Below are positions 1-12,520 of a stretch of DNA of 12,520 nt, in pieces. Position numbers and translations under genes: made by a program. The notes under the pieces were generated by a model. That model saw only the letters and a program-made list of their open reading frames with translations. It did no database searches and was not told the DNA's origin. The stretch comes from a virus (Duplodnaviria > Heunggongvirae > Uroviricota > Caudoviricetes). Every line of letters begins with the position of its first letter. Within the stretch, counting starts at the first letter, position 1. The DNA lies in IMG/VR virus record IMGVR_UViG_2565956600_000007; one strand, given 5' to 3'.

Positions 1-9
1 TTAAACTGT

Positions 10-567
10 TCATGCGTTAGTTTCTCCACAACCAGAAGCAATCGACGCCACGACGCCCGGAGCTGCACACTCGCGGGCGTCATTACTTTCTGAAACGCAA
101 AAAATTTTGTAGACAAGTGCTGCATGCTCCTGCAGCTTCGAAATTGAGAGATACAGCTCGTCGTTAATTGCTGTCTTCTCATGCGGTTCCACTACACCGT
201 CTTCGATTGCCGAACGAATCTGTTTTGAATAACTGCCGATCTGTTCAATGACTTCCAGTAAACGCTGGTTAATATCGGCATTGTCCACATCCTCGACGTC
301 AGGAAGAGACACAAAGACGCCATTTGCAGACTGCGCCACAGCGTCAGCAATGAAGTGAGTTCCACCAGCACGTTGCAAAATCATTGCCCATCCCAGCGGG
401 AAAATCTGATCGCCATCGGCACGAAGGCGGTTAAATAATGCGTTCTCTGTTACATCCAGCCACTCAGCAGCTTCAGCGTAACCCCCCGGCAACGCCGCGA
501 TAGTTTTTCTGACAGCTTTCACGTACCACTCAGGCTGTTTTTCCACTTTCCAGTGATGATTACCCAC
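10..567 (-). CDS. Phage CII-like (possibly CP76-family) regulatory protein, 185 aa
   Basis: Complete ORF on the minus strand whose ATG (565-567) overlaps the 3' end of the upstream cro-like gene by 8 nt. Sits in the cro-cII position of a lambdoid immunity region. The family assignment is from memory of the N-terminal region and is not verified. Confidence 0.55.
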   Translation of the reverse strand: MGNHHWKVEKQPEWYVKAVRKTIAALPGGYAEAAEWLDVTENALFNRLRADGDQIFPLGWAMILQRAGGTHFIADAVAQSANGVFVSLPDVEDVDNADINQRLLEVIEQIGSYSKQIRSAIEDGVVEPHEKTAINDELYLSISKLQEHAALVYKIFCVSESNDARECAAPGVVASIASGCGETNA

Positions 568-820
568 GGCTTACCTCCTGTTCCTGTGGTTTAAACCCAT
601 TCTGGTTTTGGCTAGATTGAAAACGTGCCGGATAAAGAATCTGCATTTCGCTGATTTCACCCTTAAAAAAATTGGCCAGACGTTCTGCAAGATCGATAGA
701 TGGAATTTGTTCCAGTCTTTCAATACGACTCAGCGTCGCTGGATTGACCTGAACGCCAGCAGCAACATGCTGCAAAGTAAATCCGTGCGCCTTACGCACA
801 TTCCGTAATGGTGATTGCAT
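560..820 (-). CDS. cro: Cro-like HTH (XRE-family) transcriptional regulator, 86 aa
   Basis: Helix-turn-helix-like segment FTLQHVAAGVQVNPATLSRIERLEQIPSIDLAERLANFF. Transcribed divergently from the cI-like gene across an operator-bearing intergenic region. GGAGGT Shine-Dalgarno (revcomp of 824-829) sits 3 nt upstream of the ATG. Confidence 0.8.
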   Translation of the reverse strand: MQSPLRNVRKAHGFTLQHVAAGVQVNPATLSRIERLEQIPSIDLAERLANFFKGEISEMQILYPARFQSSQNQNGFKPQEQEVSRG

Positions 821-917
821 ATGACCTCCACATATTGCGTGATGAGCATATTATTTCACGCAAATATTTTGCGCAAGTTGATTTGCTTAACGCGCAATAA
901 AGAAATGTAATAAACGC
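821..917. promoter_or_regulatory. OR-like divergent operator/promoter region between cro and cI
   Basis: A perfect TTGC-N7-GCAA dyad at 883-897 (TTGCTTAACGCGCAA), plus degenerate copies at 835-849 (TTGCGTGATGAGCAT) and 869-883, and the inverted pair TTGCGTGA (835-842) / TCACGCAA (856-863). TGTAAT (-10-like, 906-911) lies 6 nt before the cI ATG with TTGCTT (-35-like, 883-888) at 17 bp spacing, which suggests a leaderless cI transcript. Confidence 0.55.
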
Positions 918-1610
918 ATGAACATAGGAAACCGAGTCAGACAACTTCGCCAGGCGAAGAACATGAAAATCGCCGATCTCGCTGAAGCAATAGGAGTGGA
1001 TGCGGCGAATATCTCACGCCTGGAAACAGGTAAGCAGAAACAATTCACTGAACAAGCCCTGAGTAATATTGCCAGGAGCTTAGGTGTTGATATTGCTGAT
1101 CTCTTTACCTCAGACTTCAAAAGTAATACTGTATGTAAAAACAGTATTAGTGAGGATGTTGCGCAGGTGAAGGATGTATTCCGTATTGAAATGCTGGATG
1201 TCAGTGCCAGTGCGGGAAATGGCCTTATCCAGGGCGGTGATGTCATTGATGTGATTCATGCCATTGAATACAGAACTGATAATGCTGTATCGATGTTTGG
1301 CGGACGGCCAGCCAATCACATTAAAGTTATCAACGTTCGTGGGGACAGTATGTGTCCAACCATTGAGCCAGGAGATCTCATCTTCGTTGATGTCAGTATC
1401 AATCAGTTTGATGGAGATGGTATCTATGTATTTGGTTTTGATGATAAAATTTATGTCAAACGACTGCAAATGATACCTGACAAACTACTGGTGATTTCTG
1501 ATAACCAGATTTACCGTGAATGGGGAATTACCAGCGAAAATGAACACCGGTTTATGGTCTTTGGAAAGGTCTTAATCAGCCAGTCACAAACCCTTAAGCG
1601 ACACAATTAA
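918..1610 (+). CDS. cI: CI-type prophage repressor, N-terminal HTH plus C-terminal S24 (LexA-like) autopeptidase, 230 aa
   Basis: N-terminal HTH (NRVRQLRQAKNMKIADLAEAIGVDAANISRLETGK). Ala-Gly linker (SASAGNG). C-terminal GDSM serine motif and VKRL lysine motif as in LexA/lambda CI. No Shine-Dalgarno upstream, consistent with a leaderless mRNA. Confidence 0.9.
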   Translation: MNIGNRVRQLRQAKNMKIADLAEAIGVDAANISRLETGKQKQFTEQALSNIARSLGVDIADLFTSDFKSNTVCKNSISEDVAQVKDVFRIEMLDVSASAGNGLIQGGDVIDVIHAIEYRTDNAVSMFGGRPANHIKVINVRGDSMCPTIEPGDLIFVDVSINQFDGDGIYVFGFDDKIYVKRLQMIPDKLLVISDNQIYREWGITSENEHRFMVFGKVLISQSQTLKRHN

Positions 1611-1630
1611 CCCTTACCTCCTCATCAATT

Positions 1631-1651
1631 AGCCACCCAAAGGTGGCTTTT
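1631..1651 (+). terminator. Possible intrinsic terminator after cI
   Basis: Stem AGCCACC (1631-1637) / GGTGGCT (1642-1648), loop CAAA, followed by TTT. The U-tract is short, so this is weak. Confidence 0.4.
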
Positions 1652-1665
1652 CATCACCCTTTAAA

Positions 1666-1704
1666 TTGCATATCTCGCAACAAAAACACTTGCATAATGC
1701 GCAA
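1666..1704. promoter_or_regulatory. OL-like operator pair (candidate pL region)
   Basis: Two perfect TTGC-N7-GCAA dyads, TTGCATATCTCGCAA (1666-1680) and TTGCATAATGCGCAA (1690-1704), 24 bp centre to centre, matching the dyad in the cro/cI intergenic region. CATAAT (-10-like) at 1693-1698. Confidence 0.5.
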
Positions 1705-2129
1705 CTTCATTTTATCTTTCTTTCCAGACAAACAAACAAGGTACTAACAAAATTTGGTTGTAACACGGCGTATGGCACATGCGTCGTTAGCGGTCTGGGG
1801 ACGTTAAAGGGGACAATCCACTCCTTGCTCGGGCAAACAAACCAGGTAGCCGGAATGTGCAAGTCAATGATGATGCTGATAAGACGCCTAACCAGCGTGG
1901 CGATTCGGTTTGACGCCTGGGAAGAGACCAGGGTGCAACGATGAGGGCATTTATGGAGCCGCGACAAAGTGTGGTGCCGTAACTGGCTAAGTGCTCTCAG
2001 CGTTGTGGTAATCCGCGAAATGGCGCGGCGGTAAGTATGGCGGGGTTACTCTTTCCCCGTTGAGGACACCGGATTGTCAGGTTGACCATACGCCTGAGTG
2101 ACAACCCCACCACAACAGCCACTGCTTTG

Positions 2130-2175
2130 GCGGTACCAGTTTGTACCCTTGCTTCCGGCTGGTACCGCTCTTTTT
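2130..2175 (+). terminator. Strong hairpin plus T5 tract in the early-left leader (tL-like terminator or boxA-like element)
   Basis: Perfect 10-bp stem GCGGTACCAG (2130-2139) / CTGGTACCGC (2159-2168), 19-nt loop, then TCTTTTT (2169-2175). The 3' flank CGCTCTTTTTACAA resembles boxA-like antitermination sequences. Confidence 0.45.
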
Positions 2176-2312
2176 ACAAAACAGAGAAGAGCATCACCGG
2201 ACGACGGGCTCATAACCCAATCCATCCGGGCGGCTGCCACCGCAGGTGTTCTTCTCCGTTTTGTGGAGAAACCAACCGACCTTGCAGGGTCGATATGATG
2301 AGGAGCAGCAAA

Positions 2313-2675
2313 ATGGCTAGCGAACGCAGTACTGATGTGCAGGCATTTATTGGGGAGCTGGACGGCGGCGTATTTGAAACCAAAATCGGCGCAGTTCTCA
2401 GTGAAGTCGCTTCCGGTGTGATGAACACGAAAACCAAAGGTAAGGTCTCGCTCAACCTGGAAATCGAACCGTTTGATGAGAATCGTGTGAAAATCAAACA
2501 CAAACTCTCGTATGTTCGCCCGACTAACCGCGGGAAAATTTCCGAAGAAGACACCACCGAAACGCCGATGTATGTCAATCGCGGTGGTCGCCTGACTATT
2601 CTGCAGGAAGACCAGGGACAATTACTGACTCTTGCTGGTGAACCTGACGGAAAACTCCGCGCAGCAGGTCATTAA
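2313..2675 (+). CDS. Phage early protein, YfdP-like, 120 aa
   Basis: AGGAG Shine-Dalgarno at 2301-2305, 7 nt before the ATG at 2313. The longer six-frame ORF from 2082 has no ribosome-binding site and runs through the terminator-like hairpin. Size and position match the first gene of the YfdP-YfdQ-YfdR block (from memory). Confidence 0.6.
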   Translation: MASERSTDVQAFIGELDGGVFETKIGAVLSEVASGVMNTKTKGKVSLNLEIEPFDENRVKIKHKLSYVRPTNRGKISEEDTTETPMYVNRGGRLTILQEDQGQLLTLAGEPDGKLRAAGH

Positions 2676-2740
2676 TATCGTTCTTAATTAACTGATTATT
2701 TATCTCATCACTGAATATCTTTATATAGTGAGGACTTATT

Positions 2741-3565
2741 ATGTCTCAGAACTTAGACGCAACCGCAATTAATCAAATCCATGCCCTTATTTCTGCTCAG
2801 GGTGTTAATGAAATTATCAGTAAGATTGGTGCCGATGCTGTGGCATTGCCTGAGAATTTCCGCATTCATGATCTGGAAAAATTTAATTTAAATCGCTTCC
2901 GTTTCCGTGGTGCGCTTTCCACTGCCAGCATCGATGACTTTACCCGTTATTCTAAAGATCTTGCAGATGAAGGCACCCGCTGCTTTATCGATGCTGATAA
3001 TATGCGTGCCGTCAGTGTGCTTAACCTGGGTACTATTGATGAACCAGGTCACGCAGATAACACCGCCACTCTCAAACTGAAAAAGACAGCACCGTTCTCT
3101 GCTCTGTTGTCTGTTAATGGCGAGCGTAACTCCCAGAAATCACTGGCAGAATGGATTGAAGACTGGGCCGACTACCTTGTGGGCTTTGATGCTAATGGTG
3201 ACACCATTCAGGCAACAAAAGCGGCTGCGGCGGTCCGTAAAATCACGATTGAAGCAAACCAGACCGCTGATTTTGAAGATAATGACTTCAGCGGCAAACG
3301 CTCCCTGATGGAGTCTGTCGAAGCGAAGACTAAAGACATTATGCCAGTGGCATTTGAATTTAAATGCGTTCCGTTTGAAGGCCTTAAAGAACGTCCGTTT
3401 AAATTACGCCTCAGCATTATCACTGGCGATCGTCCTGTACTGGTTCTGCGCATTATTCAGCTGGAAGCGGTGCAGGAAGAAATGGCTAACGAATTTCGTG
3501 ATCTGCTTGTTGAGAAATTTAAAGACAGCAAAGTAGAAACCTTTATTGGTACTTTTACCGCCTGA
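2741..3565 (+). CDS. yfdQ: Phage protein, YfdQ-like (DUF2303), 274 aa
   Basis: GTGAGGA Shine-Dalgarno at 2728-2734. Length and order (120 aa, 274 aa, then an HD-domain protein) match the CPS-53/KplE1 yfdP-yfdQ-yfdR arrangement as I recall it. Not verified by search. Confidence 0.65.
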
Positions 3566-3577
3566 TTTCATTACTGC

Positions 3578-3599
3578 AAATGCCCCTGCGGGGGCATTT
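3578..3599 (+). other. Stem-loop between the yfdQ-like and yfdR-like genes
   Basis: Stem AAATGCCCC (3578-3586) / GGGGCATTT (3591-3599), loop TGCG. No extended U-tract beyond the stem, so it may be an attenuator or an RNA-processing or stability element. Confidence 0.4.
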
Positions 3600-3692
3600 A
3601 TGGAAACGTAATTGACTCAATAATCGCCGGATGGTGAGGGCTTTCTTTTACCAGAATTCAGCGCGGTGCAGCGCATATACGTGGAGAACAAA

Positions 3693-4217
3693 ATGTCATT
3701 TATTAAAACTTTTTCCGGGAAGCATTTTTATTATGACAGGATAAATAAAGACGACATCGTTATTAACGATATCGCGGTTTCTCTTTCAAATATCTGTCGC
3801 TTTGCAGGACATCTTTCACATTTCTACAGCGTCGCCCAACATGCGGTGCTTTGCAGCCAACTGGTACCGCAGGAATTTGCTTTTGAAGCGTTAATGCATG
3901 ATGCAACAGAAGCGTATTGCCAGGACATTCCCGCACCACTGAAACGCCTTCTTCCTGACTATAAACGGATGGAAGAAAAAATAGACGCCGTAATCCGTGA
4001 GAAATACGGGTTACCCCCGGTTATGAGTACGCCCGTGAAATATGCCGATCTCATCATGCTGGCAACCGAACGCCGCGATCTCGGGCTTGATGATGGCTCT
4101 TTCTGGCCCGTACTGGAAGGTATCCCGGCAACAGAGATGTTCAAAGTTATTCCACTGTCGCCAGGCCATACCTATGGGATGTTTATGGAACGCTTTAAAG
4201 AGTTAACTGAGTCGTAA
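3693..4217 (+). CDS. yfdR: HD-domain phosphohydrolase (YfdR-like 5'-deoxynucleotidase family), 174 aa
   Basis: HD-superfamily motifs: His in SVAQHAVL and the H-D pair in EALMHDATEAY. GGAG Shine-Dalgarno at 3683-3686, 6 nt before the ATG at 3693, which is preferred over the upstream ATG at 3666. Confidence 0.7.
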   Translation: MSFIKTFSGKHFYYDRINKDDIVINDIAVSLSNICRFAGHLSHFYSVAQHAVLCSQLVPQEFAFEALMHDATEAYCQDIPAPLKRLLPDYKRMEEKIDAVIREKYGLPPVMSTPVKYADLIMLATERRDLGLDDGSFWPVLEGIPATEMFKVIPLSPGHTYGMFMERFKELTES

Positions 4218-4325
4218 AAATCAGCACGTACGAATTCAAACTCTGCCATAAAAGAACATATAAGTAATTTATTAACATATAGATATAGGTTATATTACAA
4301 ATTGAAAAATTATTGGAGAGCAACA

Positions 4326-5192
4326 ATGAATCAAAATCCATTCTCATTCTATGACTTTCTTGGATATTTAATACCAGGTGGTTTTTTTATCCTATTAATG
4401 TATTTCTGTGGTTTGACATTCGATCTAGATATTGTTATTGACTTAAGTGAATTGCTCAGAGGTCAAAGTCAAATCTTTGGCATTTTGAACTACGCTTCAA
4501 TAGTTATTATATCTTATATAGCTGGACATTTTATTTCTATCACGTCAGCATTTTTTATCGAAAAATACATGAATAAAGAATTAGGATATCCTTCCAAATA
4601 TCTATTTAAAAAATTGATAGATACCTCAGAAAGCATTTGTAGCCCATCATGCGATGAGAGAAGCGCTGATAAAAAAACAAAAATAAAGAATCGCATAATC
4701 AAATGCGTATTATGTCCAATAATACTATGGGATTTTATAACACAAAAACTATGTTATTCTCAATCTCTACCATTTCATTTAGCTAATACAACATGGTTAA
4801 TGATCAAAGAAGGTTATGAGAAAAAGTTCATAACAAATCGCCAATTATTACAAGATAAAAACGGACTTGATGATGATCTCTTCAGATTGGCATATCATTA
4901 TGTTTATGAGTTTTCAAAACAACATCAAACAAAAATTCAAAACTATGTTGCATTATATGGTTTTTGCAGAAACATATGTTTAATCTTTATAATTTCATTT
5001 TGGGTATCAGTTCCAACCTTTATTTATCGATTATGTACTCATAGTGATTATCTTTATAGTTTACTTTCAATAATGCTTAGCTTTTTCTTCGTCTATGTTT
5101 TCTATGTTGGTTTTGTTAAATTTTATAGAAGATATACTTTAGAAGTATTAATGGCATTTGCTGTACTTCAAAGTAACGACACTATTCGTTAA
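4326..5192 (+). CDS. AT-rich integral membrane protein of unknown function (about 4 TM helices), candidate moron, 288 aa
   Basis: GGAGAG Shine-Dalgarno at 4315-4320 before the ATG at 4326. Hydrophobic segments: FLGYLIPGGFFILLMYFCGLTF, IFGILNYASIVIISYIAGHFISITSAFFI, YVALYGFCRNICLIFIISFWVSV, LYSLLSIMLSFFFVYVFYVGFV. Composition is much more AT-rich than the flanking phage genes, with Lys/Asn/Ile/Tyr-rich codon usage. Confidence 0.7.
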   Translation: MNQNPFSFYDFLGYLIPGGFFILLMYFCGLTFDLDIVIDLSELLRGQSQIFGILNYASIVIISYIAGHFISITSAFFIEKYMNKELGYPSKYLFKKLIDTSESICSPSCDERSADKKTKIKNRIIKCVLCPIILWDFITQKLCYSQSLPFHLANTTWLMIKEGYEKKFITNRQLLQDKNGLDDDLFRLAYHYVYEFSKQHQTKIQNYVALYGFCRNICLIFIISFWVSVPTFIYRLCTHSDYLYSLLSIMLSFFFVYVFYVGFVKFYRRYTLEVLMAFAVLQSNDTIR

Positions 5193-5233
5193 TAATGTTG
5201 CTCCCGTGTGCAGACGGGATAATGGAGAAACGT

Positions 5234-5440
5234 ATGCTGAACCTCGATTGTGTTCCTATCTCAACTTATTGCAAAGAAACTGGCGAAACTCCTGAAGCAA
5301 TAAACAAACGTGTACAGCGCGGTGTTTGGCGTGAAGGTGTTCAGGTTTTAAAGGTTGAAGGCGTTAAGGAGAGGTGGATTGATCTTAGTGAGGTTGCAAA
5401 ATGGGCCAGACAAAACTGCTCAAACTACCGCGCGGCGTAA
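5234..5440 (+). CDS. xis: Excisionase (Xis-like), about 68 aa
   Basis: Small basic protein immediately upstream of int, overlapping it by 40 nt as in lambda xis/int. GGAG at 5224-5227 precedes the ATG at 5234. Alternative in-frame starts at 5222 and 5195. Confidence 0.6.
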   Translation: MLNLDCVPISTYCKETGETPEAINKRVQRGVWREGVQVLKVEGVKERWIDLSEVAKWARQNCSNYRAA

Positions 5441-6573
5441 CAATCAGGAAACACCGCCAGGGAGAAACGATCAATATAACTTTCACCTACAAAGGAGTTA
5501 GATGTCGTGAGCCGCTTTCCAATCTGGAAGTAACATCAAAGAACATTAAATACGCCGAGCGTACACTCGGCGAAATCCATAATAAGATCGAAAGGGGAAC
5601 ATTCATTTATGCAGAATATTTTCCCCGTTCTGCTCGTTTGAAAATTTTTGGTAATGCTGCTGCAGGCAAAACGGTAAAGATGTACCTGGACGAATATCTT
5701 GAAATCTGCGAAACAAGAAAACTTTCACCCTCTACGATTGGTGGCTATAAAAAATGCCGTAGTGCGTTAGCCTCACTTCACATTTGCCCTGCAAGTGAAT
5801 TAACACCAGCAACCCTGAAAGCGTGGATTCAAAGCCAGAAAACAACCTTAAAAACCATTCGCAACCAGTTATCTTTCCTACGGTCAGCACTTGATGAAGC
5901 CGTGACCGATGGGGTACTTCAAATTAACCCCGTATCGTTAGTAACAGCTTCGCGCTACCAAAGTGATAAGTCAGAAGCAGAAAGCAGCTATGTGGTTGAT
6001 CCGCTATCACCAGCAGAAGTTGATGCATTACTAGCAGCAGCCGGAAACAAACAATGGGAAAATCTGTTCCGGTTCGCCATACATACAGGCCTGCGTAGTT
6101 CTGAATTATGTGCCCTACGATGGCATGATATCGACTTTGTTGGAAAAACAGCCCATGTTCAGAGCGCAAGTGTTGTCGGAGTTATCAAAGGAACAAAGAC
6201 AAAAGCCGGTACCCGTAAAGTTGAACTGACTGAAGAAGCAATGTTGGCGTTGATAAACCAGAAGCCATTTACATTCATGAAGGATGCTACTGTCTTTGAA
6301 GATCCAAAGACCAATAAACCCTGGGCAAGTGCTGATGCAATTAGGAAAAAAGCATGGGTGCCAACATTGCGAAAAGCAGGTATTCGTTACAGAAACCCAT
6401 ATCAAACCAGGCATACATTCGCCACCAGCCATATCAGCCGGGGAGCAAACCTGTTTTGGCTTGCGGCTCAAATGGGCCATAAAGGGCCTGAAATGTTATT
6501 CAGGCACTATGGACAATACTTGAAAGAGTATGATGGGAGGGCAAGTATCAAGGATAAAAAGGCTTTATTTTAA
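5401..6573 (+). CDS. int: Tyrosine recombinase, lambda-type phage integrase, 390 aa
   Basis: N-terminal arm-binding-like region (LPRGVTIRKHRQGETINITFTYKGVRCREPL). Catalytic signature residues: R in TGLRSSELCALRW, H-x-x-R in TRHTFATSH, and a C-terminal H...Y in GHKGPEMLFRHYGQY. Confidence 0.9.
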   Translation: MGQTKLLKLPRGVTIRKHRQGETINITFTYKGVRCREPLSNLEVTSKNIKYAERTLGEIHNKIERGTFIYAEYFPRSARLKIFGNAAAGKTVKMYLDEYLEICETRKLSPSTIGGYKKCRSALASLHICPASELTPATLKAWIQSQKTTLKTIRNQLSFLRSALDEAVTDGVLQINPVSLVTASRYQSDKSEAESSYVVDPLSPAEVDALLAAAGNKQWENLFRFAIHTGLRSSELCALRWHDIDFVGKTAHVQSASVVGVIKGTKTKAGTRKVELTEEAMLALINQKPFTFMKDATVFEDPKTNKPWASADAIRKKAWVPTLRKAGIRYRNPYQTRHTFATSHISRGANLFWLAAQMGHKGPEMLFRHYGQYLKEYDGRASIKDKKALF

Positions 6574-7182
6574 GTCATTATGCCAATCGTCTACTGTTTG
6601 AAACCAAATTTTTAACCTTTGCATAAAGGTACGATCCTTTTTGGGAGGGTGGTACCTTTGAAAAGAAGTATGTAACGCTTCGATAACTCCCATACAAGCA
6701 TCAATTACTTCTTGTGCTTTAACCGGGCGATCGGCATCTGAAAGCTTGTGAGCGACCTCACAATCCAGAGTTGCTTTCTCTAGTACAGATGAGAACACCT
6801 CGTCAGGTATATACAGTCCTCTGCTTTCCAAAATGCAAATCAGTTTGGAAACTTGTTGAGCTTTAGCCAAGATAGTTAACAAGTATGAAACAGAAGCCTT
6901 TGTTCTATCCTTTTGCAACCTTAACAATCGATGCTTTGATGCTCTAATTTTAGGTTGAGTTGTCTGACTGAGCCAATAGTTAGAAGAAATATCAGAAATT
7001 TCAATAACTAACTTTGAAATAGCATCAATAATTGATTTCGATTCAGAACGTGTCGCCAGTTTTACAGAATTATTGTACGCAACTCGCCATCCAATGAAAA
7101 CTAAGCAGACGCTAACTACTGTGATACACCACGAATACTGTCCTATTTGTGCTACTAATGACATTGGTTCCGTACTGATCAA
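6565..7182 (-). CDS. Membrane-anchored protein of unknown function (N-terminal TM helix plus helical domain), third gene of the cargo operon, 205 aa
   Basis: TTG start at 7182 preceded by AAGAGG at 6 nt spacing; alternative ATG at 7164. N-terminal hydrophobic segment YSWCITVVSVCLVFIGWRVAY. The 3' end overlaps the int stop convergently by 9 bp. Confidence 0.55.
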   Translation of the reverse strand: MISTEPMSLVAQIGQYSWCITVVSVCLVFIGWRVAYNNSVKLATRSESKSIIDAISKLVIEISDISSNYWLSQTTQPKIRASKHRLLRLQKDRTKASVSYLLTILAKAQQVSKLICILESRGLYIPDEVFSSVLEKATLDCEVAHKLSDADRPVKAQEVIDACMGVIEALHTSFQRYHPPKKDRTFMQRLKIWFQTVDDWHNDLK

Positions 7183-7192
7183 CTATCGCCTC

Positions 7193-7519
7193 TTATACTC
7201 TTTCTGGTTGTGCTAAATCAATAAATTTATCAATCTGTTCTTTGTAGAACGGAACATCACTTTTTATAATCAAACGTGCTTTAACGTTGGCTTTAGGTAT
7301 CCCTTCCTTACGGATGAGACCTCCAAACGCCTCTTCTAAGAAAGAGGAACCAACACCCAGTGCTATACCGCGAAAATCAACCACAATCTCCTGTTCAGTA
7401 CCCTTCAGCGCAGGCACCAAAAACTCTCTACGAAATCTTTCCGCACTGTGTGGGCTATCCGTTGTGTAACGTCCGAAAGGTGTTCTGGAGAACTCCTTCG
7501 CTATGACGATATTTCTCAT
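7193..7519 (-). CDS. STAS-like (DUF4325-like, anti-sigma-factor-antagonist-like) protein, 108 aa
   Basis: Small protein with a VVDFRGIALGVGSSFLEEAFGGL segment resembling the SpoIIAA/RsbV region that carries the phosphorylatable Ser. AGGAG Shine-Dalgarno 8 nt upstream of the ATG. Starts 4 nt after the ATPase gene stop. Confidence 0.6.
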   Translation of the reverse strand: MRNIVIAKEFSRTPFGRYTTDSPHSAERFRREFLVPALKGTEQEIVVDFRGIALGVGSSFLEEAFGGLIRKEGIPKANVKARLIIKSDVPFYKEQIDKFIDLAQPERV

Positions 7520-7523
7520 AAAA

Positions 7524-8435
7524 TCATCTCCTGGGAACCAGCGACCATTGTAGTAAAGTACCCGGTATGTACTCAGCTAGCTTCTCACATCGAGGACTAC
7601 TGTCATTAGAATTATAGCTATAACGAGCCCTTCCTGTTAGTATCAGAAGTGTCTCATTATCCTCACAACCTGCCCCAATAGGTCTCTTGATATCTTCAGA
7701 GCCATTTCCCCGTCCGGAACCAACAAAGCGGGATTCCCCTACTAACATAGCTCTTTCCACAGAAGATACTTCGTTTTGAATGCTATGACCATCACCATTA
7801 GGCACGAAACTTCTATAAATCCCCAATCCAAGGTCACAAACGATAAAAACGACTTTATTTTCATCACGATTGAACCAAGCGCACTGCCACCATCGTTTAC
7901 CTTTGAGAAGCTGAATATCTGACTCGAACCCCTCATCTTCATACGCATGATGAGAAACATTGAGCAAAGCTTCACTAATCGCTGTCAGCAGTAAGCCTAA
8001 CTGTTCATTATTAAGCAGAGCACTTTTCTGCAGCATGAGTACTGTTTCAACAATATGCTCGTAAGGTTCGACAGCTGACTGAAAGTATCGTTCCTCCCTC
8101 GTAAGTGCATTCAGTTTCTCTTCTGTGCCAGCAAGCAAAGCACGAGCAAGTCCAGTACCAACGATCCATCTATGCCCAGATGGGTTATCATCCTTTTTAG
8201 GCCATTTAAAACGTATAAAATTAGGGTCCCGGGTTAAAAATTGAGCTCTATTTACTATGGCAAAGAACAGTACCGATGCCGCAGCTGAGGCAAATTTTAC
8301 CTTGGACAAATCAACTATAACTCGACCTTTATTTTTTACTCCAATCGATTCAATCGAGTTGATGAAGTTCAATGTCCCAGCCCTAGAATCATCTGAGTAA
8401 ATGCAAAATTTGCTTGGGGGTACCAGTATGGTCAT
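7524..8435 (-). CDS. GHKL-type ATPase (HATPase_c-like, RsbW/SpoIIAB-like putative Ser kinase) with a roughly 140-aa N-terminal domain of unknown function, 303 aa
   Basis: Bergerat-fold motifs in the correct order and spacing: N-box EALLNVSHHA, G1 box VCDLGLGI, G2 box GSGRGNG. First gene of a tightly packed three-gene minus-strand operon with an AT-rich upstream region (8436-8583). Confidence 0.65.
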   Translation of the reverse strand: MTILVPPSKFCIYSDDSRAGTLNFINSIESIGVKNKGRVIVDLSKVKFASAAASVLFFAIVNRAQFLTRDPNFIRFKWPKKDDNPSGHRWIVGTGLARALLAGTEEKLNALTREERYFQSAVEPYEHIVETVLMLQKSALLNNEQLGLLLTAISEALLNVSHHAYEDEGFESDIQLLKGKRWWQCAWFNRDENKVVFIVCDLGLGIYRSFVPNGDGHSIQNEVSSVERAMLVGESRFVGSGRGNGSEDIKRPIGAGCEDNETLLILTGRARYSYNSNDSSPRCEKLAEYIPGTLLQWSLVPRR

Positions 8436-8583
8436 AGCGATGTCATTCTTATACGATGGATTTATAGATTATCTACTATTCATAGTTGGTTATGAAGACT
8501 GGGATATAACAGTAAAAGATACGTGTAAGATCCGCAAGATAGTTAATGTCGAAAAAAATCATTAATTACATCAAGTTAGTGAT

Positions 8584-8619
8584 ATTTGGACTCGGGTTCA
8601 ACTCCCGCCAGCTCCACCA
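8584..8619 (+). other. ssrA: tmRNA (ssrA) 3'-terminal segment (T-arm, acceptor 3' strand, CCA): att core or displaced ssrA end
   Basis: ATTTGGACTCGGGTTCAACTCCCGCCAGCTCCACCA closely matches the 3' end of enterobacterial tmRNA as I recall it (GGACGCGGGTTCAACTCCCGCCAGCTCCACCA). Sequence upstream of 8584 is unrelated to tmRNA, so this is only a fragment. Confidence 0.7.
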
Positions 8620-8666
8620 AAATTCTCCATCGGTGATTACCAGAGTCATCCGATGAAGTCCTAAGA

Positions 8667-8698
8667 GCCCGCACGGCGCAAGCCCTGCGGGCTTTTTT
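8667..8698 (+). terminator. Intrinsic terminator downstream of the ssrA 3' segment
   Basis: Stem GCCCGCA (8667-8673) / TGCGGGC (8686-8692), 12-nt loop, then TTTTTT (8693-8698). Confidence 0.7.
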
Positions 8699-8752
8699 GT
8701 GCCCTCAATTTGTCCCGCGAAGTCCGAAGAAAACTAATTAAATCCGATCCTT

Positions 8753-8806
8753 TTAGGCACCTTGTTAGGCACCTCATAAAGCTTTATTGTTTTTTGAGGT
8801 GCCTAA
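8753..8806. promoter_or_regulatory. Three copies of a 9-bp motif TTAGGCACC upstream of the P4-type integrase (candidate arm-type or regulatory sites)
   Basis: Direct copies at 8753-8761 and 8765-8773, and an inverted copy GGTGCCTAA at 8798-8806, 19 bp upstream of the int ATG. Confidence 0.4.
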
Positions 8807-8824
8807 AACTATGGAAACCCGGCA

Positions 8825-10066
8825 ATGGCAAGACAAACCAAACCTCTATCCGTTAAAGAAATAGAATCAGCCAAACCCAAGGAGGCGGACTACGTTCTCT
8901 ATGATGGCGATGGCCTTGAGCTACTCATTAAATCCAGCGGGAGTAAAATCTGGCAGTTTCGCTACATTCGCCCTGTCACCAAGAAACGAGCAAAGAAGAG
9001 CATAGGCTCCTACCCGTCAGTTACCCTTGCCGATGCCAGAAACTACCGTGCAGAGTCCCGCTCACTACTGGCTAAACAGATCGATCCGCAGGAACATCAG
9101 CAAGAACAATTGCGCAGTTCGCTGGAAGCCAAAACCAACACTTTCCAACTCGTAGCTGAACGTTGGTGGAATGTGAAGAAAGCCAGTGTGACAGAGGACT
9201 ATGCGGAAGATATCTGGCGCTCTCTTGAAAGAGACGTCTTTCCTGCGATTGGCGACGTTAGCGTTACAGATATTAAAGCTCATACACTGGTTCAGGCCGT
9301 ACAACCGGTTCAGGCCAGAGGAGCACTGGAAACTGTTCGTCGCCTGTGCCAACGTATTAATGAGGTCATGATCTATGCCCAGAACACAGGGCTGATTGAT
9401 GCTGTTCCCAGCGTTAATATCGGTAAAGCCTTCGAGAAGCCTCAGAAAAAGAACATGCCCAGCATTCGACCGGATCAGCTACCTCAGTTAATGCAGACGA
9501 TGCGAACAGCCAGCATTAGCCTTTCCACACGCTGCCTGTTCATGTGGCAACTTCTTACTATTACCCGCCCTGCCGAAGCGGCTGAAGCTCTCTGGGAAGA
9601 GGTAGACATAGAAGCGCGAGAGTGGAAGATTCCTGCAGCACGCATGAAAATGAACCGCGACCATACTGTTCCATTGTCAGATGAAGCAATTGCGATACTA
9701 GAGATGATGAAGCCGTTAAGTGGAAATCGAGAATTTATCTTTCCCAGCCGCATCAAGCCAAACCAGCCGATGAACAGTCAGACCGTAAACGCATCGCTAA
9801 AACGCGCAGGTTTTGGTGGGGTGCTCGTTTCACACGGCCTGCGATCTATCGCCAGTACAGCCCTTAATGAGCAGGGATTTCCACCTGATGTTATTGAGGC
9901 TGCACTTGCTCATGTGGATAAGAATGAGGTTCGTCGTGCGTATAACCGTAGTGATTATCTTGAGCAGCGACGGCCTATGATGCAGTGGTGGGCTGATTTT
10001 GTGATGGCTGCAGATCACGGTAGTATGATTGAAGGAGGGATAAAGGCAATGCGGTTAGTTGGATGA
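8825..10066 (+). CDS. intA: P4/CP4-57-type tyrosine integrase, 413 aa
   Basis: N-terminal arm-binding-like region (KPKEADYVLYDGDGLELLIKSSGSKIWQFRY). Catalytic R in TITRPAEA, H-x-x-R in HGLRSIAST, C-terminal Y in RRAYNRSDY. Lies about 200 bp downstream of the ssrA 3' segment in the same orientation, as for intA next to ssrA in E. coli K-12 (from memory). Confidence 0.9.
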   Translation: MARQTKPLSVKEIESAKPKEADYVLYDGDGLELLIKSSGSKIWQFRYIRPVTKKRAKKSIGSYPSVTLADARNYRAESRSLLAKQIDPQEHQQEQLRSSLEAKTNTFQLVAERWWNVKKASVTEDYAEDIWRSLERDVFPAIGDVSVTDIKAHTLVQAVQPVQARGALETVRRLCQRINEVMIYAQNTGLIDAVPSVNIGKAFEKPQKKNMPSIRPDQLPQLMQTMRTASISLSTRCLFMWQLLTITRPAEAAEALWEEVDIEAREWKIPAARMKMNRDHTVPLSDEAIAILEMMKPLSGNREFIFPSRIKPNQPMNSQTVNASLKRAGFGGVLVSHGLRSIASTALNEQGFPPDVIEAALAHVDKNEVRRAYNRSDYLEQRRPMMQWWADFVMAADHGSMIEGGIKAMRLVG

Positions 10067-10146
10067 CATGTCGTAGCTAAAACCCGTTCTGTTTTTGGGT
10101 AGATTAACCTGAAGGTCTGCAATTTTAAATGACGCTGAAAGAAGTT

Positions 10147-10172
10147 AAACCCTGCTCTTAAGCAGGGTTTTT
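10147..10172. terminator. Bidirectional intrinsic terminator between the convergent integrase and cargo operon
   Basis: Stem AAACCCTGCT (10147-10156) / AGCAGGGTTT (10161-10170), loop CTTA, flanked by T and A runs. Confidence 0.6.
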
Positions 10173-10204
10173 ATGATTTATTCTAATTTTGGTTTTGAAT
10201 CTTT

Positions 10205-11299
10205 CTATTTTAAATCAGCCTTTGCGGCTCGAATATCTGCGTTTTTTGCTGAGTATTCCCATTCGTCAGCGATTCTAAATAGCATTGCAGAAGTACGGAC
10301 GCAGTGGGGCATTGAATTTGCCCATTCTCGGTACTGCTCAGCTAATATCCTTTCTTGGTTTCCACCTTCGTAACGCATACGAGCAAATACCCCCCTTTTA
10401 TTGTACCTACCAATTTGTATACCTTGCTCTAACTCATCAGAAGATAATATTTCAATGATGTGCCGAATTGCTTCATGTGGCCAGGAATTATCTACTGAGC
10501 TATTAGGGGCATGTGCCAGAATTTTTCCTATTACATGATCAGTGATTTCTTGGCGATGATGCAATTTTGCTAAATGGCGTACATTCTCACACCAATCTTC
10601 AAGTTTATCTTGATCAATTTCATTGTCTATCTGCCCTGGTAGTATTCGTAATTTTTCAAGTAATCTGTATATAGAAGTAGCTCTTTTAACTTCCAACTCC
10701 GATGGTTCTGTTTGTTCATCTTCGTCACTACGATATACAATACATATTGCTTCTATAAAAACCTCTGGCTTTTTCATCATTAGACGATGCAGGATAAGTG
10801 GCTCATCGCTATCCGGAAAACAAGGCAAGTAGGTCATTTCTTTAAATGCCAAATCTGTTTCAGAAACATCGTTACGTTGTTTGAGTTCATCAAAAACTTT
10901 TTTTACATAGTACGATAGCATTGTATCAAATTGGATATCCTGGCTATTTATTTCTTTAACGACTATATCTAGAAGATATAAAAGTGTTGTAGATGGAATC
11001 TCAGAAAGGCGTTGATTTGCTGATATAATAGCAGCAAGACCCCGGCCCCTTTCTATATATTTATCCATAAGAACAAATAAATCCGAAGTTTTACCCATCA
11101 TTGCAATGGGTTGTTTTTGCAACCAATATTTTTCGTTGATGTTATCTTCAAACCCTTCAATAATGCTCCATATCTCTTGTGAGTCTCTTAACGATGCTAA
11201 GATTTTCCCAGCCCTATCAGGGGTAATTTTAAACTGTTTAAAATACACTTTTATTTTATTAAGCCATTCAGCACCAAAGCATTCAACACCATATTGCAT
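10205..11299 (-). CDS. Hypothetical protein (AT-rich, predicted largely helical), distal gene of a translationally coupled pair, about 364 aa
   Basis: ATG at 11297-11299 overlaps the upstream stop as TAATG. The six-frame TTG start at 11305 is less likely. No Walker A, nuclease or other motif recognisable by eye. Confidence 0.65.
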   Translation of the reverse strand: MQYGVECFGAEWLNKIKVYFKQFKITPDRAGKILASLRDSQEIWSIIEGFEDNINEKYWLQKQPIAMMGKTSDLFVLMDKYIERGRGLAAIISANQRLSEIPSTTLLYLLDIVVKEINSQDIQFDTMLSYYVKKVFDELKQRNDVSETDLAFKEMTYLPCFPDSDEPLILHRLMMKKPEVFIEAICIVYRSDEDEQTEPSELEVKRATSIYRLLEKLRILPGQIDNEIDQDKLEDWCENVRHLAKLHHRQEITDHVIGKILAHAPNSSVDNSWPHEAIRHIIEILSSDELEQGIQIGRYNKRGVFARMRYEGGNQERILAEQYREWANSMPHCVRTSAMLFRIADEWEYSAKNADIRAAKADLK

Positions 11300-12520
11300 T
11301 AACAACCCACAAACTTCATCAATATTTTTTTGTTGTTAATAAGCATTACAAACAAATCATTTAATTTTTCTTCATCCAACGAGAGTGCTGATATATGCCT
11401 TGCTGCAATAAAAACATTATTAACTTGTTGAAAAAGGTCTTTCACCCCAGACAAACCTAAAGTAAAGTATATTTCCCTAAGTTTTTCACTTCGCATTTCT
11501 TCGACAGAAGAAAAAATTCCGCCAGCATTTTCAATTGACTCTTCAATATCAGAATCCCAATCATTGAAAATCCATAAACTGGCTCTAACCATGTCAATTG
11601 GTTTATAATTATCAAGTATTTTCGCTATTTTTTCCATAGACTCAAATTTAAATGCCCAGTTCGCATCTGAATATTTTTTATGGCGAGAATACTCATGACG
11701 CAAAGCCTCCCATACGATGAACTGATCCTCTTCAGTTTGTTGAGAAAGGCAAAGTTCAAGATGAGAAAGTGTTTCATCTATTGCATTCTCAGGGAATGAG
11801 CTTAAATGAGAGATTAGGATTTCCCATCTTGTTGGGAGTATACCTGCAAGTTTAATTGCTTCTTGGATAATAAAGATTTGCCCCTCCCAAACAACGCCCC
11901 ACGTTAGTTTTTCTACATCTTTATCCGACTCTCTGAACTTCATTTTTTGGTTTTGATCAGAGGTATCATGGGAGCGAGGAAGGAGATTTTGTAACAAACT
12001 CCACCCAATACTAGGAACAATAGTGATAATTTTTTTTATAATTGCATTTCTAACTTTTACTGGTGCCCATGTATTAGGAGACCATGCCAGAAAAATGGTT
12101 CTTAAACTATTAAGAGGGCGATCTGAGTAAGTTCCTCCGGGATCTATTACAGCGAGTTTTGCAAGACAGATTGCAGCGCGTAATAGATATGTTTGTTCCC
12201 AAGCCAAGGCTTCCAATGCCCATTTTAATCCATGATAATGACTTCGAGGAGTTAACAGCCCTTTATCTTCATTGAATATTGGAGCAATCATTTCCCCATT
12301 GCCCTTAAGCAATTGCTCAAGGGCATCAAGGAAAGGGCCAGGGGCAGCTTCTGCCAGCAGCGGAAGTTGATCTCGCAAACTAACAAATAGTCGATGGTCG
12401 TTAGCAAGTCCCGGAATACTCTGAACTATTTTGTTAACAAAATCTTGGGGTGTCATACCAGTAACCCGGAATTCGGCCTGTTCATGTAATATGATCTTAC
12501 CCAGCAATAGTGGACACGCG
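11299..12520 (-). CDS. Hypothetical protein, 5'-partial (the reading frame is open to the window edge; more than 402 aa)
   Basis: The frame is open through 12508-12519 on the minus strand, so the true start is outside the window. AT-rich, with no recognisable catalytic motif. Confidence 0.65.
   Translation of the reverse strand, partial: ACPLLLGKIILHEQAEFRVTGMTPQDFVNKIVQSIPGLANDHRLFVSLRDQLPLLAEAAPGPFLDALEQLLKGNGEMIAPIFNEDKGLLTPRSHYHGLKWALEALAWEQTYLLRAAICLAKLAVIDPGGTYSDRPLNSLRTIFLAWSPNTWAPVKVRNAIIKKIITIVPSIGWSLLQNLLPRSHDTSDQNQKMKFRESDKDVEKLTWGVVWEGQIFIIQEAIKLAGILPTRWEILISHLSSFPENAIDETLSHLELCLSQQTEEDQFIVWEALRHEYSRHKKYSDANWAFKFESMEKIAKILDNYKPIDMVRASLWIFNDWDSDIEESIENAGGIFSSVEEMRSEKLREIYFTLGLSGVKDLFQQVNNVFIAARHISALSLDEEKLNDLFVMLINNKKILMKFVGC

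Follow-up and report, generated by a model that had tools for sequence, protein, structure and literature searches.

Why a short copy of the 3' end of ssrA, the tmRNA gene, should lie between the genes of a lambdoid prophage and a P4-type integrase is the question raised by this locus, which was analysed within a window of 12,520 nucleotides (the whole stretch of DNA; unless another sequence is named, positions refer to it). The initial annotation had proposed that a lambdoid phage integrated into the ssrA 3' end beside a resident P4/CP4-57-like island, resulting in tandem occupancy of the site, and the repeat structure, the gene content and the related genomes described below agree with this proposal. 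Positions 8436-8824 are very probably an attR junction, formed when a lambdoid phage integrated into the 3' end of ssrA in front of an older P4-type island. The features identified in the window are the following.

1-5221, no strand assigned: early and immunity region of the lambdoid prophage (ymfL-like, Cro-like, CI-like repressor, yfdP/Q/R, hypothetical gene)
5222-5440, plus strand: excisionase (Xis), overlapping the integrase start (PHROG 2917, E=8e-45)
5401-6573, plus strand: prophage integrase of 390 aa, Arm-DNA-bind_2/DUF3596 type (Pfam Phage_integrase)
6565-8435, minus strand: three cargo genes (205 aa, 108 aa and 303 aa) in the slot between int and attP
8436-8592, plus strand: phage-derived non-coding attR arm, from the start of the last cargo gene up to the core
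8593-8620, plus strand: att core of the prophage attR, comprising the last 27 nt of ssrA and one A
8621-8824, plus strand: flank travelling with the P4-type integrase island (hairpin, terminator, integrase upstream region)
8628-8655, plus strand: hairpin (fold/scan)
8663-8698, plus strand: Rho-independent terminator, stem GAGCCCGCAC.GGC / GCC.CTGCGGGCTT followed by a T-run
8825-10066, plus strand: P4/CP4-57-type tyrosine integrase of 413 aa (Pfam Arm-DNA-bind_3, Phage_int_M, Phage_integrase)
10205-12520, minus strand: start of the island cargo, a large hypothetical gene that runs off the window

The sequence shared with ssrA is the 27-mer CGGGTTCAACTCCCGCCAGCTCCACCA at 8593-8619 on the plus strand, which occurs a single time in the window and for which 0 chance matches are expected when up to 3 mismatches are allowed (200 shuffles). 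It is the exact 3' end of ssrA in E. coli 55989, K-12, NADC1036 and EC21, and it comprises the 3' part of the T-stem 5' strand, the T-loop, the T-stem 3' strand, the acceptor 3' strand and CCA. ARAGORN identified neither a tmRNA nor a tRNA in the window, and the Rfam tmRNA model (RF00023) reached 21.9 bits, below its gathering score of 47, the alignment being credible only over the T-arm, the acceptor 3' strand and CCA, with a supposed 5' part made up entirely of non-canonical pairs. The fragment at 8593-8619 is not a tmRNA gene, as no full-length match above the gathering score was obtained, nor does a complete gene lie immediately upstream (ARAGORN, Rfam), where the initial annotation had allowed that one might have been overlooked. 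Upstream of 8593 the likeness to ssrA is restricted to GGAC (8588-8591) and two T's. Proceeding in this direction, the first mismatch is T8592, where ssrA has a G, and TTTGGACT at 8585-8592, inside the phage arm, is a near-match to ssrA with T8592 replacing G. The resemblance to tmRNA was initially estimated at ~36 nt; that only the 3' end is copied stands, but the span is ~32 nt. The T-stem substitution originally attributed to a displaced copy disappears, since T8592 falls outside the repeat and belongs to the phage-derived arm, of which it is the base adjoining the core. The arm was correctly described as divergent, and it is phage-derived, bearing no relation to the ssrA upstream sequence, but T8592 is no mutation. 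Immediately left of the core the window reads ...GTGATATTTGGACT, which belongs to the phage arm, and to the right AAATTCTCC..., which belongs to the island spacer.

Alignment of a full ssrA 3' end with the fragment, the check suggested at the outset, was carried out on the junctions of related genomes and revealed a 28-bp perfect direct repeat, in which the attR core recurs without change at the 3' end of the intact ssrA that borders the opposite end of the prophage. The attL and attR sites have exactly 28 bp in common, corresponding to the 27-mer plus A. No second copy of the core was found by a pattern search of the whole window, as expected given that the window spans just the last 8.6 kb of the prophage; the second copy, the absence of which would have weakened the initial proposal, is present at the other prophage end in the related genomes. 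Five complete E. coli genomes contain window positions 7400-10200 at 99.9% identity or more. Over its full length the window is matched best by MEI7BO1-21 (99.2%), and no genome in the collection searched matches all of it at 100%. In NADC1036 the order is smpB, ssrA, cargo, lambdoid prophage, three minus-strand cargo genes, fragment, P4-type integrase and decayed island. The ssrA gene of this strain is 363 nt long, ARAGORN-valid and encodes the tag ANDENYALAA, and the two cores lie 46,428 bp apart, bounding a complete 46.4-kb prophage (tail, head, terminase, lysis, Q, replication, immunity, yfdPQR, xis, int). MEI7BO1-21 displays the same order with a degraded prophage of ~23 kb. In genomes that match the junction at 99.7% or more, the far end of the prophage adjoins an intact ssrA oriented like the fragment, and from these close relatives an intact ssrA would be expected at the far end in the source genome of the window as well. 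Within the window just a 3' fragment is visible, as would also be the case if ssrA had been truncated in place and the fragment were the sole remnant in a strain without a functional tmRNA gene. Nevertheless, a complete, ARAGORN-valid ssrA lies beside smpB at the other prophage end in all junction genomes examined, and the attP of the free phage LLS carries a restoring copy; such a truncation has a vanishingly small probability.

The DNA that follows the phage end differs among strains. The arm 8436-8592 is identical in NADC1036, WL164 and C31 regardless of the DNA to the right of the core. In WL164 the same phage arm, core and identical cargo proteins precede a different integrase island, and in C31 they precede an ancestral-type flank. 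One phage end is, therefore, joined to three different right-hand flanks across strains, identifying the phage as an independent unit with its right boundary at 8620/8621. The empty site is represented by EC21 (smpB, ssrA, ~155 nt, ypjA) and the island-only site by 55989.

The DNA to the left was initially described as prophage cargo rather than tmRNA, and this is borne out by the cargo genes, phage integrase and excisionase found there. The prophage integrase is 91% identical to the integrase of phiNP and 86% to that of phage LLS, both of which carry an ssrA-core att site, and the window Xis is 92% identical to phiNP Xis. The integrase encoded at 5401-6573 is the enzyme that probably made the junction. 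Window positions 1-4212 display ~96% nucleotide identity to mEp460, PhiR and Stx2 phages, and a lambda-like gene order was found by combining this match with the annotation of NADC1036. Positions 596-1745, which hold the immunity functions with a CI-like XRE repressor at 918-1610, match MEI7BO1-21 and not NADC1036; prophages otherwise 99.6% identical are mosaic at immunity.

The three cargo genes encode a 205-aa protein of no assigned function, a 108-aa DUF4325 (STAS-like) protein and a 303-aa protein with a weak match to a histidine-kinase-like ATPase (HATPase_c_2). PADLOC returned no match for any of the three, and the PHROGs that they matched are without known function. In relatives the slot between int and att is occupied by an AAA ATPase (phiNP and several E. 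coli prophages) or by one unrelated gene (LLS), suggesting a variable position for moron or defence genes. The variable cargo next to attL also looks defensive, comprising a type II restriction endonuclease, a cytosine methyltransferase and a GIY-YIG protein in NADC1036 (locus L003, 12792-16648), and AbiTii plus the STM2766/STM2767 helicase pair in MEI7BO1-21 (locus L011, 22821-26814).

The ancestral sequence following ssrA can be recognised from strains with an empty site. In EC21 the trailer after CCA starts with ATCATGATTGG... and is 96% identical over 230 nt to the K-12 DNA beyond the distal fragment of CP4-57 (psaA). By the logic of integration, the EC21-type trailer is the ancestral ssrA trailer because it is found past psaA. 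Alignment places its terminator, a hairpin plus T-run, ~128-152 nt after CCA; the consensus terminator scan misses the EC21 terminator, the T-tract of which is interrupted. Behind the intact ssrA of NADC1036 lies a homologous trailer, 91% identical to the ancestral one, with phage DNA after the terminator, and the terminator stem displays compensatory changes (GCCCAC/GTGGGC to GCCCGC/GCGGGC). A ~155-nt homologue of the ancestral trailer lies in the attL arm of NADC1036 (L003, 12558-12712) and in the attP arms of LLS (L012, 4028-4180) and phiNP (L006, 26-185). The homologue in the attP arm ends just past the terminator and, therefore, the phage replaces the whole 3' trailer of ssrA, beyond the last 28 nt.

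A synthetic attP, composed of the window arm, the core and the attL arm of NADC1036, was used as a query against phage records and recovered Escherichia phage LLS (PQ299149), a free temperate phage isolated on K-12. LLS displays the order xis, int (86% identical), one cargo gene, the same 28-bp core and a homologous trailer with terminator, and its depositors annotated the site as ‘tmRNA pseudogene’ and attP. The record of Citrobacter phage phiNP (OR565852) is bounded by the core, with one mismatch in the 27-mer at the record end. A megablast search of the int-to-core stretch against phage records revealed only phiNP (integrase) and short core matches, and in the searches of phage records the exact left arm of the window was present in no deposited phage.

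To the right of the core, positions 8593-8840 are equal, base for base, to the phage-free ssrA-int junction of 55989. Over 8621-8824 the flank matches the ssrA-int spacer of 55989 at 100% identity and that of K-12 at 88%, and is unrelated to the trailer of the empty-site strain EC21. The P4-type integrase had been placed at an ssrA-intA-like spacing, and the distance from CCA to the integrase ATG is indeed 205 nt in the window, as in 55989, compared with 203 nt in K-12. The integrase at 8825-10066 is 85% identical to IntA of CP4-57 (K-12), and in 55989 an integrase with the same protein accession lies directly 3' of an intact ssrA. In every genome examined the window-type spacer and terminator are immediately 5' of a P4-type integrase. 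Because the terminator at 8663-8698 adjoins such an integrase in all of these genomes and is unrelated to the ancestral trailer, we conclude that it was supplied by the island and differs in origin from the ancestral terminator of ssrA. In strains that have the island alone, this element acts as the terminator of ssrA; in the window it has been orphaned. The initial annotation called it native: an intrinsic terminator is real and present in K-12, but it is island-borne, since a different ancestral trailer and terminator occur in empty-site strains and beyond the distal end of CP4-57.

Just 5' of the integrase start, TTAGGCACCT is present in three copies, two direct (8753-8762 and 8765-8774) and one inverted (8797-8806). 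In CP4-57 of K-12 the corresponding positions are occupied by three copies of TAGGCCCA. The copies of TTAGGCACCT are probably protein-binding sites, either integrase arm-type or regulatory/autoregulatory, a role suggested because the motif changes in concert with the 85%-identical integrase.

The presence of a structured fragment followed by a terminator raises the alternative that the two form a functional sRNA gene, IsrM-like or a tRNA-like mini-RNA. The Rfam IsrM model (RF02763) matches 8610-8698 with E=6e-6, the stretch 8584-8705 folds better than shuffled sequences (z = -4.6) and the terminator is at a suitable distance. Against this, the IsrM match reaches 32 bits compared with a gathering score of 376 and covers only the ends of the model (the first 7 and last ~50 of 329 positions), the aligned part being the terminator module; a scan found no plus-strand promoter-like site upstream; the inherited T-arm and the terminator account for the good fold; and the left arm differs among LLS and phiNP, so there is no conserved upstream element. 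A functional sRNA gene is, therefore, extremely improbable. Identity with the IsrM sRNA gene itself was rejected, as the terminator module alone is shared, below the gathering score. A partial IsrM match of 45 bits was also observed in WL164 (locus L008, 5050-5248), alongside the 32 bits in the window, both lying within the spacer and terminator module that follows ssrA, and the 3' end of the model of this Salmonella island sRNA appears homologous to the surrogate ssrA flank of ssrA-targeting islands.

The window reaches just 2.4 kb into the island, and the large gene entered there, which in both MEI7BO1-21 and 55989 encodes 1248 aa, is broken into two frames by the loss of 1 nt near 11325 compared with NADC1036 and those two strains, reflecting either a pseudogene or a sequencing error. 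PADLOC returned no match for this gene. In NADC1036 the island is decayed, with IS3 copies, no distal repeat and a ypjA truncated by IS3; no distal (psaA-like) ssrA repeat of the island was detected within ~21 kb downstream (up to 3 mismatches, blastn-short). Neither alpA nor the primase-like yfjI, both present in K-12, is among the annotated features of the NADC1036 island, as judged from the annotation only.

These observations suggest the following course of integration. The phage attP would consist of a copy of the 28-bp ssrA 3' end joined to a ~155-nt copy of the trailer with its terminator, and the phage Int would recombine attP with the ssrA 3' end within the 28-bp identity, with Xis taking part in the reverse reaction. 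The crossover most likely occurs across the 7-nt T-loop, which is the probable overlap region because inverted CGGG/CCCG half-sites flank it; sites in the T-stem region are a major class for tDNA-targeting integrases (PMC4383910). Integration would rebuild an intact ssrA at the smpB-proximal end (attL) from phage-borne sequence, while the old ssrA 3' end and its flank, with the island terminator and integrase, would be displaced to the distal end (attR). The resulting fragment would be a hybrid, in which phage DNA gives way after ~8592 to the shared core (8593-8620), itself followed by island DNA from 8621. It is expected to be a scar and not a gene, its sole anticipated activity being that of a substrate for excision by Int and Xis, and, as the two 28-bp copies do not differ, excision would give back an unaltered ssrA. 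The source prophage may have lost the capacity to excise, that of its closest relative being degraded.

The two elements can be placed in a probable order of arrival. New elements normally target the functional copy of a tDNA, such that the newest lies nearest the gene. The island most probably arrived first and the phage later. An island with an integrase region at least 99% identical is found in several hundred genomes and the tandem in about a dozen; in every phage-free example listed the island is directly 3' of an intact ssrA; NADC1036 combines a complete prophage with an island that has decayed and lost its distal repeat; and it is the phage that adjoins the live gene. In the opposite order, the phage would have entered an unoccupied ssrA and the island would later have entered the displaced attR fragment. 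The final sequence is identical either way, making the junction alone uninformative on order, the fragment holds the last 15 nt of ssrA (CCGCCAGCTCCACCA), a block repeated by K-12 psaA minus one T, and the phage does occur at island-free sites such as C31. Nevertheless, the wide distribution of the island directly after intact ssrA in phage-free genomes, compared with the dozen or so genomes with phage plus island, the decay of the NADC1036 island (IS3, lost distal repeat, truncated ypjA) beside a complete prophage, and the general principle that the newest element is nearest the gene, as in the arrays described in PMC4383910, make this reversed order very improbable.

A junction of this kind resembles known systems. 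In PMC4383910, which cites Williams 2002 and 2003, an intact tDNA with a displaced fragment is given as a signature of integration and tandem arrays are described, and the same paper reports the tmRNA gene as the most enriched target of tDNA-targeting elements. Lambdoid and Stx2f phages insert at ssrA, leaving intA leftovers at the prophage extremity (PMC11597368; also PMC7067040). Similar to the tDNA-targeting elements compiled in Islander (PMC4383910), the present prophage, which carries a tyrosine integrase, is bracketed by an intact gene and a direct 3' fragment, the identity block runs from T-loop to CCA, and a second element with its own integrase lies behind. Of the Islander expectation for arrays, one fragment per member, half was found here, the second element having no distal fragment in NADC1036. 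Phages LLS and phiNP share with the window integrases at 86-91% identity, the order xis/int/cargo slot/attP, the core and the arm with trailer plus terminator; in contrast, they carry other cargo between int and attP, the immunity region is mosaic, and the window phage lies upstream of a second island.

The relationship with CP4-57, reportedly described by Kirby in 1994 as a cryptic prophage at ssrA-intA, is one of similar placement and different contents. The likeness of the window island to CP4-57 of K-12 resides in the 85% identity of the integrase to IntA, the position after ssrA, and the surrogate terminator and spacer (88%). Major differences involve the cargo (alpA/yfjI-type genes in K-12, absent from the NADC1036 island annotation), the psaA-like distal fragment of K-12, which was not found for the window-type island in NADC1036, and the repeats, TAGGCCCA in CP4-57 and TTAGGCACCT in the window. 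In addition, the CP4-57 integrase adjoins a live ssrA, whereas that of the window adjoins a displaced copy. Excision of CP4-57 deletes T357 of ssrA and disables trans-translation (PMC10107115); in contrast, the window fragment retains the T357-equivalent T. The attR fragment of MEI7BO1-21 (locus L011), CCGCCAGC-CCACCA, is without this T, as is the psaA fragment of K-12, although the missing T in MEI7BO1-21 may be an assembly error. If the loss is real and the crossover lies to the left of it, excision of the MEI7BO1-21 prophage would inactivate tmRNA, as for CP4-57. It is highly unlikely that the fragment has a further role, whether as a source of a tRNA-like RNA or as a secondary attB for leapfrogging ssrA-targeting elements, or that excision switches tmRNA off in relatives lacking T357.

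The window junction is an ordinary example of an already described arrangement, namely tandem tDNA islands at the ssrA phage hot spot, and its importance is little beyond correct annotation. It fixes the point (8620/8621) at which the prophage ends on the right and the older island begins, and it indicates that the tmRNA gene of the strain should be intact elsewhere. What is commonly taken for the ssrA terminator in K-12-type strains is island-supplied, while in phage-bearing strains ssrA is followed by a phage-supplied, ancestral-type trailer, in which the terminator is ~80 nt farther from CCA. Excision of this prophage should leave tmRNA unchanged, unlike that of CP4-57 (PMC10107115).
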